Source of the DNA: a virus
Lineage: Duplodnaviria; Heunggongvirae; Uroviricota; Caudoviricetes
DNA: 6,791 nucleotides
Reading direction: 5' to 3' (one strand)
Virus record (IMG/VR): IMGVR_UViG_2703718769_000011
The notes below the pieces were generated by a model. That model saw nothing but the letters and a program-made list of their open reading frames with translations. It was not told where the DNA came from and searched no databases. Numbering within the stretch: position 1 is the first letter of the stretch; each line of letters opens with the position of its first letter. A program made the position numbers and the translations under genes. Shown piece by piece: positions 2,594 to 6,791 of the stretch.

Positions 2594-2782
2594 GTTGACC
2601 TCATTTACCCTTAACGCCGGGTCGCGGAACTAAAAACCTGCTGCGCTGTTATACAAAGTGTTCCCGCCGTCATGTTCATACGCCTCGGGCTGGCTACTTA
2701 ACCCCTGACCACTGCCTGGTAACTCGAAGTATTGCCCTGCGTTCTGTGGGGCGGGGTGGGTTGATGAATATAATCTACAAGT

Positions 2783-2815
2783 AAAAACTGTTTGATGTCA
2801 ACAATAAATAACTGT
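2783..2815. promoter_or_regulatory. Candidate leftward operator/promoter (OL/PL-like)
   Basis: AAAAACTGTT-TGATGTC-AACAAT (2783..2805) resembles the 3818..3846 palindrome with the same 7-bp spacing, and a further AACTGTC lies at 2809..2815. On the minus strand a perfect TTGACA (-35, 2801..2796) is followed after 18 bp by TAGATT (-10, 2777..2772), pointing at the 50-aa gene. Confidence 0.35.
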
Positions 2816-2826
2816 CATTTTGGACG

Positions 2827-2851
2827 AAGAAAACTCCCTCATCAGTGGGAG
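2827..2851 (-). terminator. Possible weak intrinsic terminator after the toxin gene
   Basis: Minus strand CTCCC-ACTGATGA-GGGAG followed by TTTTCTTC, 15 nt after the toxin stop. The stem is only 5 bp. Confidence 0.3.
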
Positions 2852-2865
2852 CAAAAGCGGTGGGC

Positions 2866-3153
2866 TTAAAGATTAGCGGGGAATTGTCGACGGGCGTGAA
2901 CCACGTTTACAATTTCAATACCTGAAGTTGTCACCCGGTACAAAATTATGTAATTGGGGTGAGCCACAATCTCGCGCAAACCTGGCACTCTGTCGCTTGG
3001 CGGATATAAATACGGATGTTCGGATAACGGCAGGACGCAAGCTCTTAAGCGTTGCCATAAGCGTTCTGCCGCATCTATGTCGAAACGGGCAATATAACTA
3101 GTTATATCATCCAGATCGGTATCTGCGCTTTCAAGCCATAACACGGGTAACAT
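2866..3153 (-). CDS. parE: ParE/RelE-family type II toxin (ParE2-like), 95 aa
   Basis: The translation MLPVLWLESADTDLDDITSYIARFDIDAAERLWQRL...EIVAHPNYIILYRVTTSGIEIVNVVHARRQ has the size and pattern of RelE/ParE plasmid-stabilisation toxins. Its ATG directly follows the antitoxin stop (TAA-ATG at 3156..3151). Confidence 0.8.
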   Translation of the reverse strand: MLPVLWLESADTDLDDITSYIARFDIDAAERLWQRLRACVLPLSEHPYLYPPSDRVPGLREIVAHPNYIILYRVTTSGIEIVNVVHARRQFPANL

Positions 3154-3345
3154 TTACTGCTCTCTCCGTTCCTTGCGAATTTTGGCAAAGCGTTCTGCCA
3201 TTCTGCGCTCAACTTCATCATGTGGAATAGCAGGACGTGGATCAGCAAGGCTTGCGGCTACTTTTGCGCGTAACCATTCGTTATAACTGTTTTCTTGCTC
3301 AACGGTTTCAAATTCAGAAACCATTGGTGAAAGGGCTGTATTCAT
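3154..3345 (-). CDS. Small antitoxin, 63 aa, PaaA2-like (ParE-associated antitoxin)
   Basis: ATG at 3345..3343 is preceded by a strong SD AAGAGGAGG with a 6-nt spacer. The ORF-track start at 3408 has no SD and would overlap the repressor stop. Translation: MNTALSPMVSEFETVEQENSYNEWLRAKVAASLADPRPAIPHDEVERRMAERFAKIRKERREQ, charged and probably disordered. It sits immediately upstream of the ParE-like toxin; the size matches the 63-aa PaaA2 of the described paaR2-paaA2-parE2 system as I recall it. Confidence 0.65.
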   Translation of the reverse strand: MNTALSPMVSEFETVEQENSYNEWLRAKVAASLADPRPAIPHDEVERRMAERFAKIRKERREQ

Positions 3346-3374
3346 GACATACCTCCTCTTACAGGTGGTAGAGA

Positions 3375-3776
3375 TTACGCTCGGTGCCCCTTTTGGGCTG
3401 CGATCCACCGAGCAACAGTTTCTTCCATTGACTTTTTCTTATTTTTTATTTCCTGAAGCATTTTTTCTTGGTCTTCATCGGGAAATGCACTAAAAGCTTG
3501 GAGCAATTCACGTTGGCGAGGGCCAATTTTCATCGTGTCAGGAGTAAAAATTTGCTCTCCCTCTTCTGGAGGTAATAAAAACCAATGTAGTGGATGCCCT
3601 GTAACCTCGACCAACTTATCTAAGCTGGAGGCTTTAGGTGTGGCTTTTCCACTGACCCATTGCTGAACAGTTTGCTGTGTCACACCGACTCTACGAGCAA
3701 GTTCAGCTTGGCTCCATCCTGTTTCTTTGAGGAGCCTGCTAATTCTGTACATAGATACTTCTAGGGCCTTCATCAT
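3375..3776 (-). CDS. HTH (XRE/cI-type) transcriptional repressor, DicA/PaaR2-like; candidate prophage immunity repressor
   Basis: N-terminal helix-turn-helix SQAELARRVGVTQQTVQQWVSG. The C-terminal part (IGPRQRELLQAFSAFPDEDQEKMLQEI) resembles the DicA C-terminal region as I recall it. Divergent from the Cro-like gene across an operator-bearing intergenic region. The start could be ATG 3776 (no SD, possibly leaderless) or the internal ATG at 3752. Confidence 0.8.
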   Translation of the reverse strand: MMKALEVSMYRISRLLKETGWSQAELARRVGVTQQTVQQWVSGKATPKASSLDKLVEVTGHPLHWFLLPPEEGEQIFTPDTMKIGPRQRELLQAFSAFPDEDQEKMLQEIKNKKKSMEETVARWIAAQKGHRA

Positions 3777-3884
3777 TATTCGATTTTACAGGTAAATACT
3801 GTTAAAAGCACCACAATAAAAAACTGTTGATCATGAACAGTTTTTTATTGTAGCCTTTATCTATGAACTTCAGAGGAGGGCAAC
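3777..3884. promoter_or_regulatory. Divergent operator/promoter region (OR-like) between the repressor and Cro-like genes
   Basis: Perfect 11-bp inverted repeat AAAAAACTGTT-GATCATG-AACAGTTTTTT at 3818..3846, plus another ACTGTT at 3798..3803. SD GAGGAGGG at 3874..3880 serves the Cro-like ATG at 3885. A minus-strand TAAAAT at 3788..3783 sits just upstream of the repressor ATG, suggesting a leaderless transcript. Confidence 0.6.
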
Positions 3885-4145
3885 ATGCTCAATAGCACCC
3901 GTGAAAAAATTAAGCAGAAATACACACAGGCTGAAATAGGACGCTATATGGGAGTAACCCAACAAACTGTTTGGCAATGGTTTAGCTTGGGTATTCCTCC
4001 CAAACAGGTAATCCCTTTATGCCAACTAATGCAGTGGGGGGTTACTCCTCACGAACTCCGACCTGATATTTATCCTAACCCAACAGACGGCTTGCCTGCT
4101 GAGTTTCAGACTAGCACACAGCCAGCGACGGGAGTTGATTCATGA
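3885..4145 (+). CDS. Cro-like HTH protein (YdaS-like), 86 aa
   Basis: HTH QAEIGRYMGVTQQTVWQWFSLG, strong SD, first gene of the rightward operon. Its stop overlaps the next start in an ATGA (4142..4145). Confidence 0.7.
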   Translation: MLNSTREKIKQKYTQAEIGRYMGVTQQTVWQWFSLGIPPKQVIPLCQLMQWGVTPHELRPDIYPNPTDGLPAEFQTSTQPATGVDS

Positions 4146-4567
4146 AAATCAAGCATGAGCACATCCGCATGGCGATGAATGCCTGGGCATATCCTGACGG
4201 TGAGAAAGTTCCCGCAGCTGAAATAGCCCGGACTTATTTCGAACTGGGGATGACGTTCCCGGAACTGTACGACGACACTCATCCTGAGGCCCTGGCTCGT
4301 AATACCCAGAAAATTTTCCGTTGGCTGGATAAAGACACCCATGATGCTGTTGAAAAAATTCAGGCTCTGTTACCGGCGATCGAAAAGGCGATGCCGCCTT
4401 TGCTGGTGGCCCGTATGCGCAGTCACAGTTCTGAGTACTACCGGGAGATTGTCGAACGGCGGGATCGGCTGGTGAAGGATGTCGACGATTTTGTTGCGTC
4501 AGCGGTCGTTTTGTATGACCAGATAAATCGCGGCGGCCCGGCAGGGAATGCTGTGGTGATGCACTAA
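4142..4567 (+). CDS. ydaT: YdaT-like protein (CII-like regulator family; historically annotated toxin YdaT), 141 aa
   Basis: The translation begins MKIKHEHI..., which matches my recollection of Rac-prophage YdaT. It is translationally coupled to the Cro-like gene and has SD GGGAG 7 nt upstream. Confidence 0.6.
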   Translation: MKIKHEHIRMAMNAWAYPDGEKVPAAEIARTYFELGMTFPELYDDTHPEALARNTQKIFRWLDKDTHDAVEKIQALLPAIEKAMPPLLVARMRSHSSEYYREIVERRDRLVKDVDDFVASAVVLYDQINRGGPAGNAVVMH

Positions 4568-4589
4568 AAGCACGGTGTTCGGGGGTTTT

Positions 4590-5558
4590 ATGAGCAGCAA
4601 GCTTCATGGTCTTGTCTGGGAAGGATGCGCCTTCACTGGCATGATCTTATCAAGGGTGGCAGTAATGGCCCGTCTTGCAGATTACAGCAATGACGAGGGG
4701 GTGTCATGGCCTGCTATGGAAACGATCCGGCGTCAGATCGGTGCCAGAAGTGAATCCACCGTGAAATCTGCGATTGCAGAACTGGCGAAAGAGGGCTGGC
4801 TGACGAAGGAAGAGCGTAAGATCGGTGGGCGTAACGTAAGCAATATCTATCGGCTTAATGTGGAAAAACTCGAAGCAGCGGCAGCGGCGGCGCGTGAGGC
4901 ATATAAACCGAAAAGAAAAATTAGCCCGGCAAAAAATGACCCGTTAACAGTTGACCCGTCAAATATTGACCCCTCAACGGTTGACCCGTCAAATTCTGAG
5001 GGGTCAACCATTGATAAAAAACAGCCGATTAGGGGGGCGATGATTGACCCCGATCCGTCAGTATTAAAACCTGATCCGTCAGATAAAAGATCTTCTTGTC
5101 CGGACGTTTCACTTCCGGACGAAAAAAAATCATCTCCGGTTGAACGCTTTCTGGATAAACACCCTGATGCGCATACGTGGAATGTGCCGAAGCGACAGTG
5201 GGGAACCCGTGATGATATTACCTGTGCGCAGTGGATCTGGGGGCGTGTTGTTGCGCTGTATGAACACGCAGCCAGTGATGATGGTGAGGTTTCTCGCCCC
5301 AGAGAGCCAAACTGGACGACATGGGCTAACGATGTCCGGATGATGCGCATGCTGGATGGCCGCAGTCACCGGCAGATTTGTGAAATGTTCAGTCGGGTGC
5401 AGCGGGATCCGTTCTGGGTAAAAAATATCATGAGTCCGGCAAAACTGCGCGAAAAATGGGATGAACTGGTCATTCGTCTTGGGCGTGGGCCTGCGCAGAG
5501 TTGCGTGAATCATATTTCTGAACCGGACACTGAAATTCCACCGGGTTTCAGGGGGTAA
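4590..5558 (+). CDS. Phage replication initiation protein (O-like): N-terminal winged-HTH domain, iteron-encoded linker, DnaT-like C-terminal tail
   Basis: The N-terminus (from the ATG at 4590, GGGGG just upstream; the ORF-track start at 4575 is a GTG) has an HTH-like region ...VSWPAMETIRRQIGARSESTVKSAIAELAKEGWL. The C-terminus ...SEPDTEIPPGFRG matches the E. coli DnaT C-terminus (...SEPDSQIPPGFRG) as I recall it. Direct repeats lie inside the coding sequence. Immediately upstream of the DnaC-like gene. Confidence 0.75.
   Translation: MSSKLHGLVWEGCAFTGMILSRVAVMARLADYSNDEGVSWPAMETIRRQIGARSESTVKSAIAELAKEGWLTKEERKIGGRNVSNIYRLNVEKLEAAAAAAREAYKPKRKISPAKNDPLTVDPSNIDPSTVDPSNSEGSTIDKKQPIRGAMIDPDPSVLKPDPSDKRSSCPDVSLPDEKKSSPVERFLDKHPDAHTWNVPKRQWGTRDDITCAQWIWGRVVALYEHAASDDGEVSRPREPNWTTWANDVRMMRMLDGRSHRQICEMFSRVQRDPFWVKNIMSPAKLREKWDELVIRLGRGPAQSCVNHISEPDTEIPPGFRG
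4936..5007. repeat. Candidate replication-origin iterons inside the O-like gene
   Basis: Four copies of TTGACCC(G/C)TCAA or its inverted form start at 4951, 4966, 4981 and 4996 (15-bp period), with an imperfect fifth at about 4937..4948. An A-rich stretch follows (5013..5022) and a more distant related copy lies at about 5044..5060. Confidence 0.6.
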
Positions 5559-5564
5559 CTGACC

Positions 5565-6317
5565 ATGAAAGATATCGCGACAGTTGCAGTTGGTGTTCTG
5601 GAACGCATCCGCAGACTGGCTCCTGAGCACGTTCCCGTGCCGTACAGTACGACGGAGGAGTGGCGCGAGTGGCAACTTGCCGAAGGCCGGAAATACTGCG
5701 AGGAGATTAACCGCCGGAATCGTCAGTTGCGGGTGGAAAAAATCCTGAACCGTTCGGGCATCCAGCCGCTGCACCGCAAATGTTCGTTCGCGAATTACCA
5801 GGTGCGGAACGACGGGCAGAAACATGCGCTGAGCCAGGCTAAATCCATCGCTGAGGAAATGATGACCGGTTATACAAACTTCGTGTTCAGCGGGAATCCG
5901 GGAACCGGAAAAAATCATCTGGCGGCGGCTGTGGGTAATCGTCTGCTGAAGGCTGGTAAATCCGTGATAGTGGTCACCGTGGCGGATGTGATGAGCGCGT
6001 TACATGCCAGCTATGACGACGGGCTGTCAGGGGAAAAATTTTTGCGTGAACTGTGCGAAGTGGACCTCCTGGTTCTTGACGAAATTGGCATCCAGCGTGA
6101 GACGAAAAACGAGCAGGTGGTACTGCACCAGATTGTTGACCGCCGGACGGCATCACTGTGCAGTGTCGGGATGCTGACAAACCTGAATCATGCCGCAATG
6201 AGCACGCTTCTTGGTGAGAGGATTATGGACAGGATGACCATGAACGGTGGTCGCTGGGTGAGTTTTAACTGGGAAAGCTGGCGTCCCAATGTCAGCCATC
6301 TGAGAGTATTGAAGTAA
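5565..6317 (+). CDS. DnaC-family helicase loader (phage-encoded DnaC paralog), 250 aa
   Basis: Walker [14 protein letters not shown] and Walker [10 protein letters not shown]. There is extended similarity to E. coli DnaC as I recall it (NRSGI.PLH..CSF.NY, ...GMLTN.N...LLGER.MDRM, ...FNW.S). SD GGGGG lies 8 nt upstream. Confidence 0.85.
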
Positions 6318-6339: not shown

Positions 6340-6791
6340 ATGGAAACCGTTTTTGACGCACTGAAAGCACTGAAAAGAGCCTCTTCACAGGTAGTGGCGG
6401 CCCGCCTTGGAATCAGCCGTGAAGATGCGGTCAACGAACTGTGGAAACTGAAGCGCCGTGGTGAAGCGGATAACAAGGGGTCGATGTGGTGGCTGATTCA
6501 GGCTGGTGAAAGTGAACCTGTGTCACAGGTACCGAAAGTGACAGCGCAAATGCTGACTGAGGCGATTGAACAACATGGCCCACAAACGGCGGATGAACTG
6601 GCACTGATGTTCGGAATTACCTCCCGCCGGGCGAATTCATCGCTGGCGATGGCAATCAGCAAAGGGCGTCTGATTCGCGTGAATCAGGGCGGTAAATTTC
6701 GTTACTGCATACCGGGCGCTGATTTACCGGCAGAGCCGGAAGCTGCATCCGTAGCGGAAACGGATGGTAAAGCCTTTCCTCAGCCAGCAGG
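6340..6791 (+). CDS. Hypothetical protein, 3'-truncated by the window end (150 codons visible, not in the ORF track)
   Basis: ATG at 6340 is preceded by SD GGAGGA (6327..6332). The frame stays open to the window end. Translation starts [43 protein letters not shown]... and has a second similar segment ([32 protein letters not shown]). Confidence 0.55.

Follow-up and report, generated by a model that had tools for sequence, protein, structure and literature searches.

The window, by which we mean the whole 6,791-nt stretch of DNA analysed here, is the immunity region of an E. coli prophage that resembles Rac and CP-933P and whose integration site adjoins ompW. An intergenic region of 108 bp separates a short repressor gene, read leftward, from a rightward Cro-like gene of the YdaS family, and the genes on the two sides of it were assigned as follows:

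2866-3153, minus strand: ParE toxin (Pfam ParE_toxin, E = 9.4e-17)
3154-3408, minus strand: PaaA2-type antitoxin (Pfam PaaA2, E = 2.1e-20)
3375..3776, minus strand: repressor of 133 aa, with an N-terminal 434-like HTH and a PaaR2-like C-terminal domain (Pfam HTH_3, E = 2.8e-13)
3885..4145, plus strand: Cro-like YdaS-family gene, 86 aa (Pfam YdaS_toxin, E = 2e-11)
4142-4567, plus strand: YdaT, a CII analogue (Pfam and neighbourhood analysis)
4575-5558, plus strand: O-like replication protein (Pfam and neighbourhood analysis)
5565-6317, plus strand: DnaC-like protein (Pfam and neighbourhood analysis)

The repressor, the paaA2-like antitoxin, and the parE toxin form one leftward operon. That a palindrome lies between divergent repressor and Cro-like genes, as the original prediction had it, is borne out by the Pfam matches of the two products (HTH_3 on the minus strand and the YdaS/Cro family on the plus strand). 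From position 234 to position 6791, the window is identical to two complete bovine E. coli genomes save for one base (4033, within ydaS), and the palindrome is therefore genuine genomic sequence and no assembly artefact. None of the sequenced phages in the collection carries this immunity region, and an Rfam search of the whole window found nothing.

The best PDB match of the repressor is the N-terminal domain of the 434 repressor (E = 2.8e-5), and the protein is without a self-cleavage domain. Its recognition helix, T33-QQTVQQW-40, aligns to TQQSIEQL of 434, such that Q34, Q35, and Q39 correspond to Gln28, Gln29, and Gln33, the residues to which the 434 co-crystal structures assign base contacts. 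The helix of the Cro-like protein (TQQTVWQW) is nearly that of the repressor, the two having GVTQQTV(Q/W)QW in common, and the glutamines of 434 are conserved in both proteins. Since they share the 434-type recognition helix QQTVxQW, shared site specificity is predicted, and both the repressor and the Cro-like YdaS should bind the 15-bp sites described below. An N-terminal domain 51 per cent identical to that of the repressor occurs in phage phi467, but with a different helix and different repeats.

The palindrome and the ACAR-N7-YTGT sites

The intergenic region contains AAAAAACTGTT-GATCATG-AACAGTTTTTT (3818-3846), in which 11-bp arms surround the 7-bp GATCATG, and ACTGTT occurs again at 3798-3803. 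These sequence facts of the original prediction are all present. The 29-bp palindrome that it described is exact and real, but its size was understated: the perfect inverted-repeat arms are 16 nt long (3813-3828 and 3836-3851), giving an overall extent of 3813-3851. With one G:G mismatch, the arms reach 19 nt (3813-3831 and 3833-3851) around a single central base, at 95 per cent complementarity according to a repeat finder. The 16-nt arms are the longest perfect inverted repeat in the 6,791-nt window, and the longest arm in 100 dinucleotide-preserving shuffles of the window was 7-11 nt.

Each arm of the palindrome holds a 15-bp site of the form ACAR-N7-YTGT. There are exactly five matches to this motif in the window, against 0.43 expected, and a count of five was reached in 0 of 200 shuffles. 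The five candidate operators and the promoter elements among which they lie are listed here:

3774..3776, minus strand: repressor start codon ATG, 6 nt after the PRM -10 and the predicted +1 of a leaderless PRM transcript
3783..3788, minus strand: PRM -10, TAAAAT (TAAAAT or TAGAAT in seven aligned loci)
3788..3802, no strand: OR3 candidate operator, ACAGGTAAATACTGT, an exact motif match, centred at -19 of PRM, its position conserved in homologous loci
3806..3811, minus strand: weak PRM -35, GTGCTT, between OR3 and OR2, placed only from its 17-nt spacing to the -10
3813..3827, no strand: OR2 candidate operator, ACAATAAAAAACTGT, the left palindrome arm, centred at -44 of PRM and -43 of PR
3813..3851, no strand: 39-bp palindrome, consisting of OR2, the 9-bp spacer TGATCATGA, and OR1
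3827..3832, plus strand: PR -35, TTGATC (GTTGA invariant in seven aligned loci)
3837..3851, no strand: OR1 candidate operator, ACAGTTTTTTATTGT, the right palindrome arm, in the PR spacer, centred at -19
3851..3856, plus strand: PR -10, TAGCCT, after an 18-nt spacer (TAnnnT invariant in alignment A1), with a predicted start near 3863
3873..3879, plus strand: Shine-Dalgarno sequence GAGGAGG of the cro-like gene, read from the sequence
2773..2802, minus strand: leftward PL-like promoter with -35 TTGACA (2802..2797), an 18-nt spacer, and -10 TAGATT (2778..2773), conserved in six loci
2777..2791, no strand: OL1 candidate operator, ACAAGTAAAAACTGT, a motif match in the PL spacer
2801..2815, no strand: OL2 candidate operator, ACAATAAATAACTGT, a motif match directly upstream of the PL -35

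The starts of the OR sites are 25 and 24 bp apart, the centres of the sites are A/T-rich, and the three sites overlap the -10 and spacer of PRM and the -35, spacer, and -10 of PR. OR1 is the exact reverse complement of OR2, and the two flank the PR -35 TTGATC. Specifically, the 11-bp arms first noticed correspond to those halves of OR2 and OR1 that face each other, the additional ACTGTT belongs to a third full site, OR3, of which it forms the right half, and the 7-bp core, once taken for the centre of an operator, falls in the spacer between OR2 and OR1 and includes the PR -35. On the left side of the operon, OL1 and OL2 flank TTGACA-N18-TAGATT on the minus strand, and there are two OL sites, not three. 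A GATC sequence (a Dam site) lies inside the PR -35; it is not conserved in the homologues, and we claim no role for it.

We compared the window with homologous loci of Salmonella, Raoultella, Klebsiella michiganensis, Serratia, Morganella, Pluralibacter, and Arsenophonus, the repressors of which are 47-81 per cent identical to that of the window; a scan of genome contigs added one of these loci only, that of Arsenophonus. The arrangement of three OR sites plus two OL sites is found in all loci that keep the helix (T/A)QQTVQQW, in seven genera besides that of the window, and Arsenophonus has the same helix and the same layout, yet its repressor is only 47 per cent identical. In Morganella and Serratia, one or two half-sites are degenerate. 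Across the resulting 40 sites, there is hardly any variation in the ACA at positions 1-3 or the TGT at positions 13-15; position 4 is R, position 12 is Y, and the bases in the middle vary but are rich in A/T. All 40 sites have an internal spacing of N7 (15 bp), in contrast to the distance from one site to the next, which ranges from 8 to 11 nt. ACAR-N7-YTGT sites are absent from two E. coli loci (L010 and L011) that have the helix AQQSVQKW and a repressor 64 per cent identical to that of the window, and they are absent from CP-933P, in which the PaaR2 helix is SYLSQLMSGR; other repeats are present instead in both cases. Because the loci with another helix are without the motif sites, the operator motif tracks the recognition helix.

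From the sequence comparisons, the palindrome is best read as two neighbouring 15-bp candidate operators, OR2 and OR1, and not as one. The expectation of operator DNA between the CI-like and Cro-like genes thus stands, but the single 29-bp operator that had been proposed does not, as the conserved units are the 15-bp sites. A single operator, be it CTGT-N9-ACAG or the whole 29-39 bp, bound by a symmetric dimer or tetramer centred at 3832, is an unlikely reading. It would account for the perfect symmetry across the 16-nt arms and for the greater likeness of OR2 to the inverse of OR1 than to OR1 itself, which holds in eight of eight loci. Moreover, the inner half-sites of the Serratia OR (L008) show a symmetric exchange of T and A (CAGT ... 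ACTG), and PaaR2-type proteins are higher oligomers, of which a tetramer could span both sites (PMC8630535). Several observations weigh against this reading. The Serratia exchange is not repeated at the OL of the same locus, and in neither Raoultella nor Klebsiella do the central arms complement each other. Pairing between the arms across the loci amounts to 82 per cent, compared with 78 per cent in shuffles, which is weak covariation. A search with the pattern ACTGTT-N7-AACAGT, which a single operator would imply, matched the palindrome and the OL junction, and the overall number of matches was not above chance (5 versus 2.6 expected). The orientation of the half-sites would be opposite to that in 434, whose recognition helix is kept here. 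The spacing is also unequal, being N9 in the centre and N10 between 3799-3802 and 3813-3816, and CTGT...ACAr becomes N8 at the OL of Raoultella, Klebsiella, and Arsenophonus. What decides against a single central operator is the constancy of N7 within sites while the spacers between sites vary, together with the conserved outer half-sites (ACAG at 3788 and TTGT at 3848), which would otherwise be without partners.

The predicted divergent promoters and the repressor message

A sigma-70 scan of positions 3600-4000 gave no promoter at its threshold, and PR and PRM were therefore assigned by conservation, by homology, and by the parallel between PR and PL. Each of the two matches 7 of 12 consensus positions. 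In alignment A1, which covers seven genera, the invariant columns include A19, T20, T21, T23, and A24 in the PRM -10 and T87, A88, and T92 in the PR -10, and GTTGA and the ATGATGA at the start of the repressor gene are invariant as well. The PRM -35, GTGCTT, is a poor match to TTGACA and is poorly conserved. PL repeats the yTGT-TGAC arrangement of PR with a perfect TTGACA, and its -10 in the window and the homologues is TAGATT, TAGCCT, or TAATCT, matching the PR -10.

The repressor reading frame starts with ATGATG at 3776 on the minus strand. Directly upstream of it is CGAATA, before that TAAAAT, and a purine-rich Shine-Dalgarno sequence is absent; both the hexamer 6 nt upstream of the ATG and the missing Shine-Dalgarno sequence had been pointed out in the original prediction. 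In nine related loci, the distance between -10 and ATG is N6 in eight and N7 in L016, and a -10-N6/N7-ATG geometry holds in 10 loci, CP-933P included. The N6 spacers read CGAATA, CGAGAA, TCTCTC, TTACCA, TTACGC, TTACGG, or TTATTT, none of which resembles a Shine-Dalgarno sequence. Arsenophonus has TATAAT-N7-ATG, and in loci of the L010 type, TAAAAT-N6-ATG is in frame with the annotated start and lies 9 nt before it. Codons 3-8 of the repressor gene vary synonymously among the homologues, which indicates that these codons are translated and that translation starts at the first or second ATG. The repressor start is placed inconsistently by gene callers. With its geometry the same as that of the mapped paaR2 message and conserved among homologues in which the N6 itself varies, the leaderless reading first suggested for the repressor transcript is well supported, and the message is very probably leaderless, with the PRM start on the A of the ATG or no more than one or two bases from it.

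It is very improbable that the palindrome works as an RNA or DNA structure, that is, as a bidirectional intrinsic terminator, as a pause hairpin for read-through transcripts (for example, of the PRE type), or as a cruciform. The predicted RNA folds are stable (plus strand, -18.5 kcal/mol; minus strand, -22.6 kcal/mol; z of about -6), and a YdaT-activated, PRE-type promoter probably sends leftward transcripts across the palindrome. However, a scan of positions 3600-4000 found 0 terminators, the stem is almost entirely A-U (4 of 16 pairs are G-C) with its U-run inside the stem and not after it, no gene ends at the palindrome, and a terminator here would block the PRE transcript, the purpose of which is repressor expression. 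The palindrome is, in addition, upstream of both predicted transcription starts, and the potential to form the hairpin is not conserved in the Raoultella or Klebsiella homologues. The doubt already expressed about a bidirectional terminator was thus justified, and we rejected the terminator reading. We likewise rejected, as extremely improbable, a host LexA (SOS) box of the form CTGT-N8-ACAG that would link the switch to DNA damage: the CTGT and ACAG tetramers are present, and a repressor that does not cleave itself needs some SOS link for induction (PMC3121763), but they are separated by N9 where a LexA box has N8, the region gave no match to CTGT-N8-ACAG even when one mismatch was allowed, and the five ACAR-N7-YTGT sites are the reverse arrangement of a LexA box.

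Relation to CP-933P, 434, lambda, and Gifsy

The switch of CP-933P (Sp12) from E. coli O157:H7 consists of paaR2-paaA2-parE2 and the divergent ydaS-ydaT, with the promoters PRM933P, PR933P, and PL933P (Jurenas et al., mBio 2021, PMC8630535). PaaR2, YdaS, and YdaT of this prophage were shown to be analogues of CI, Cro, and CII, PaaR2 is an octamer, and PaaR2 and YdaS footprint the entire 97-bp intergenic region (PMC8630535). Its paaR2 message is leaderless: the start mapped by 5' RACE is the A of the ATG, with which N-terminal sequencing and mass spectrometry agree (PMC8630535). PL933P, located to the left of the toxin-antitoxin operon, is active, is repressed by PaaR2 and YdaS, and has similar operators (PMC8630535).

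The window has the same gene order as CP-933P (ParE, PaaA2, and a short non-cleavable repressor on one side and YdaS, YdaT, the O-like protein, and the DnaC-like protein on the other), and in both, a PL that carries matching operators lies beyond the left end of the toxin-antitoxin operon. The -10-N6-ATG geometry of the repressor gene is also common to the two, in the form GATAAT-TACCAC-ATG in paaR2 and TAAAAT-CGAATA-ATG in the window. YdaT is nearly identical in the two prophages (PDB 8bt1, E = 2e-86), and the window has a perfect YdaT site, TTGATT-N6-AATCAA. At the DNA level, similarity to CP-933P extends over 2604-3346 and 4131-5866, with none over 3347-4130. Only residues 37-133 of the window repressor align to CP-933P PaaR2 (123 aa, MQKKE..., L013), at 40 per cent identity over about 98 aa; the likeness is strongest in the last 45 aa or so, the HTH is of a different type, and the homology does not extend to the whole protein. 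Judged by these alignments, the window repressor is a domain mosaic, and the window keeps the CP-933P chassis and the C-terminal domain of its repressor. In contrast, the DNA-binding domain of the repressor, the cro gene, and all of the operators are unrelated, and the two prophages would therefore be heteroimmune. In CP-933P, the intergenic 97 bp hold four 18-bp inverted repeats of the GTTTAGTAA type, whereas the window has three 15-bp sites in 108 bp.

In the operators of phage 434, the outermost four base pairs of either half are ACAA or ACAG, and the centre, which is not contacted, varies (PMC1636474). All six operators in the annotated 434 genome have the form ACAr-N6-yTGT. The sites of the window share with them the ACAr/yTGT half-site, the conserved outer 4 bp, and a variable A/T-rich centre, but they are 15 bp long (N7) where those of 434 are 14 bp (N6); they are thus 434-like and not 434 operators, and the docking geometry of the 434 proteins is not exactly transferable to them because of this extra base pair. 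The positions relative to the promoters are similar as well. The centres of OR3, OR2, and OR1 are at -20.5, -43.5, and -65.5 of PRM in 434 and at -19, -44, and -68 relative to 3776 in the window, and those of OL1 and OL2 are at -18.5 and -41.5 of PL in 434, compared with -18 and -42 for PL and -19 and -43 for PR in the window. With OR1 in the spacer, PR of the window has the geometry of 434 PL, unlike 434 PR, where OR1 is over the start site. Further differences are the number of OL sites (two in the window and three in 434) and the repressor gene: 434 cI has an annotated leader and ribosome-binding site and encodes a cleavable LexA-like C-terminal domain, whereas the window repressor is short, has a PaaR2-like C-terminus, and is predicted to be translated from a leaderless message.

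The predicted arrangement resembles that of lambda in its tripartite operator between divergent cI and cro genes, its autoregulated weak PRM, its leaderless repressor message, and its OL partner. The lambda operators are 17 bp long and have no sequence relation to those of the window, the window repressor is not RecA-cleavable, unlike that of lambda, and the genes that share its transcript are a ParE toxin-antitoxin pair and not rexAB. The Gifsy phages have short non-cleavable repressors and are induced through an antirepressor (Lemire et al. 2011, PMC3121763). Like the members of the Gifsy/RacR/DicA group, the window encodes a short repressor (about 130-150 aa) that lacks a peptidase domain, and its repressor is 31.5 per cent identical to the Gifsy-1/2 (LT2) repressor over 81 per cent of the length.

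The window represents an immunity specificity that had not been characterised before, within a known kind of switch, that of the Rac/CP-933P/Gifsy group, and it leaves the understanding of how such switches work unchanged. It supplies a concrete operator consensus, ACAR-N7-YTGT, from 40 sites in 8 genera, and pairs a 434-type recognition helix with a predicted site 1 bp longer than the 434 operator. It would also extend the leaderless-repressor design, demonstrated for lambda cI and paaR2, to more enterobacterial prophages. For annotation, the operator motif offers a means of typing heteroimmune prophages.

The proposed switch and the symmetry of OR2 and OR1

The intergenic region is likely to be the right operator/promoter region (OR) of a lambdoid prophage switch, with three predicted 15-bp operators, a leaderless PRM, and an OL partner. 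The basis of this proposal is in silico (motif, layout, conservation, helix similarity, and promoter geometry), and from it we infer binding, the order of occupancy, activation, looping, and the transcription starts. Repressor bound to OR1 would fill the PR spacer and touch the -10, and repressor bound to OR2 would abut the PR -35, such that, with both sites occupied, ydaS-ydaT and the replication genes would no longer be transcribed rightward. PL would be blocked likewise by repressor on OL1 and OL2. The dimer on OR2, centred at -44 of PRM, would be placed to stimulate the weak PRM, the -35 of which (GTGCTT) fits a promoter that needs activation by repressor from OR2, by analogy with lambda, 434, and CP-933P. 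OR3, in the PRM spacer, may serve both the negative autoregulation of the repressor and the shut-off of PRM by Cro, and the Cro-like protein probably binds it first. The message for repressor, antitoxin, and toxin would start at PRM and be leaderless. Looping between OL and OR over about 1 kb is plausible, since the repressor shares the C-terminal domain of the octameric PaaR2. As the repressor is without a self-cleavage domain, induction of the prophage, if it is still inducible, would need an antirepressor, as in the Gifsy phages; unlike in the Gifsy group, no antirepressor or convincing LexA box was found in the 16.9 kb of related prophage examined.

The symmetry between OR2 and OR1 bears on this proposal separately from the operators themselves. 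OR2 is more similar to the inverse of OR1 than to its direct copy in all eight loci (96 versus 80 identities of 120), and there is no such inverted-copy trend for OR3 and OR2. The consistency of this result points to some constraint on the OR2/OR1 pair as a whole. A recurring pattern is that the PR -35 has, on the top strand, an A-run on its left and a T-run on its right, which could reflect constraints on the promoter (a T-rich spacer, and around -40 to -46 an A-tract of the UP-like kind) in addition to the preference for A/T-rich operator centres. Few extra identities are then needed for a perfect 16-nt arm, and chance or quasi-palindrome correction can explain them. The mirror symmetry about the PR -35 also takes in bases that would not be touched by a 434-like protein. 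A function of the symmetry itself, through a PaaR2-like tetramer or octamer that reads the 39-bp unit or through bending of the DNA by the A-run and T-run at the divergent promoters, is doubtful. If there were such a function, the symmetry would be selected or maintained (for example, by quasi-palindrome template switching) and not be a coincidence. OR2 is located at -43/-44 of both divergent promoters, PR and PRM. The perfect symmetry is specific to this E. coli variant, with the OL of Morganella coming close to it (14 of 15).

Boundaries of the immunity cassette and sites flanking it

The window has mosaic boundaries at 2783 and around 3347–4130, and the immunity cassette that was swapped appears to be delimited by operator and regulator sites. 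In prophages of O157:H7 strains, 97 per cent identity to the window ends at 2783, which lies within OL1, the first of the two predicted operators at the PL-like promoter. In CP-933P, the O157:H7 prophage with the characterized PaaR2/YdaS/YdaT switch, the flanks are 80–86 per cent identical to the window at the DNA level, whereas DNA similarity is absent over 3347–4130, a segment that holds the repressor gene, the OR operators, and the cro-type gene.

At the ydaS/ydaT junction, where the two genes overlap by ATGA (4142–4145), the sequence TTGATTCATGAAAATCAA (4135–4152) extends across both the stop codon of ydaS and the start codon of ydaT. It fits perfectly the motif TTGATT-N6-AATCAA, published as the recognition sequence of YdaT (PMC9986795). 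This site is probably the equivalent of PRE, through which the CII analogue would activate leftward transcription of the repressor gene.

Directly downstream of the PL −10 element is a C-rich stretch, CAACCCACCCCGCCCCACAGAACGCAGGGCAA (approximately 2725–2765, minus strand), which is located in a non-coding leader and yet is conserved, being retained among loci of Escherichia coli, Salmonella, Morganella, and Pluralibacter (OL regions of the homologous loci L002, L009, and L012). Rfam returned no match for the stretch, which may represent a nutL-like element or an RNA element of another kind.

Repressor start codons and operator variants

Two consecutive ATG codons open the repressor gene, both in the window (3776–3771) and in all close homologs, and the heptamer ATGATGA at the repressor start is invariant across seven genera. 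On a leaderless message, such a double ATG would keep an AUG at or beside the 5′ end despite a 3-nt wobble of the transcription start site. In several database records, the window-type repressor is called from the second ATG (132 aa). In L010 and L011, the E. coli loci with a 64 per cent identical repressor, an in-frame ATG precedes the annotated start (2501, MTTLEI...) and is situated exactly 6 nt past TAAAAT. Translation from this ATG gives MKRMTTLEI..., in agreement with the leaderless geometry of the repressor family, and the repressor as annotated in these two loci is probably 9 nt too short.

In the Serratia locus (L008), CAGT replaces CTGT in the −35-proximal half of both OR2 and OL2. 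The half of OR1 that faces OR2 reads ACTG in this locus, so that local dyad symmetry is retained (CAGTTGAT-T-ATCAACTG). One possible reading of the half-site change is that specificity differs slightly; another is that the half-site next to the −35 element is constrained.

At the center of the palindrome in the window is a Dam site (GATC, 3829–3832) located within the PR −35 element TTGATC. Homologs read TTGACC, TTGACT, TTGATT, or TTGATA at this element; because the Dam site is not conserved, we do not claim a regulatory role for it.

Integrity of ydaS and of the exonuclease gene

In L001, the near-identical genome, the ydaS-like gene (8586–8859, corresponding to 3885–4158 of the window) is labeled by RefSeq as a frameshifted pseudogene. 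This label looks like an annotation artifact, because the sole difference from the window over ydaS is a Q/L substitution at 4033, and the window ORF (3885–4145, 86 aa) is intact.

Two adjoining features occupy the start of the window:

1–233, IS1 transposase fragment (ORF 9–218)
229–1392, 387-aa ORF, C-terminal part of a prophage RecE-type exonuclease

The 387-aa ORF had no match in Pfam. Homology with the otherwise identical prophage of E. coli OkiPb01678 starts at position 234; the exonuclease gene is therefore broken by IS1 in the strain from which the window derives.
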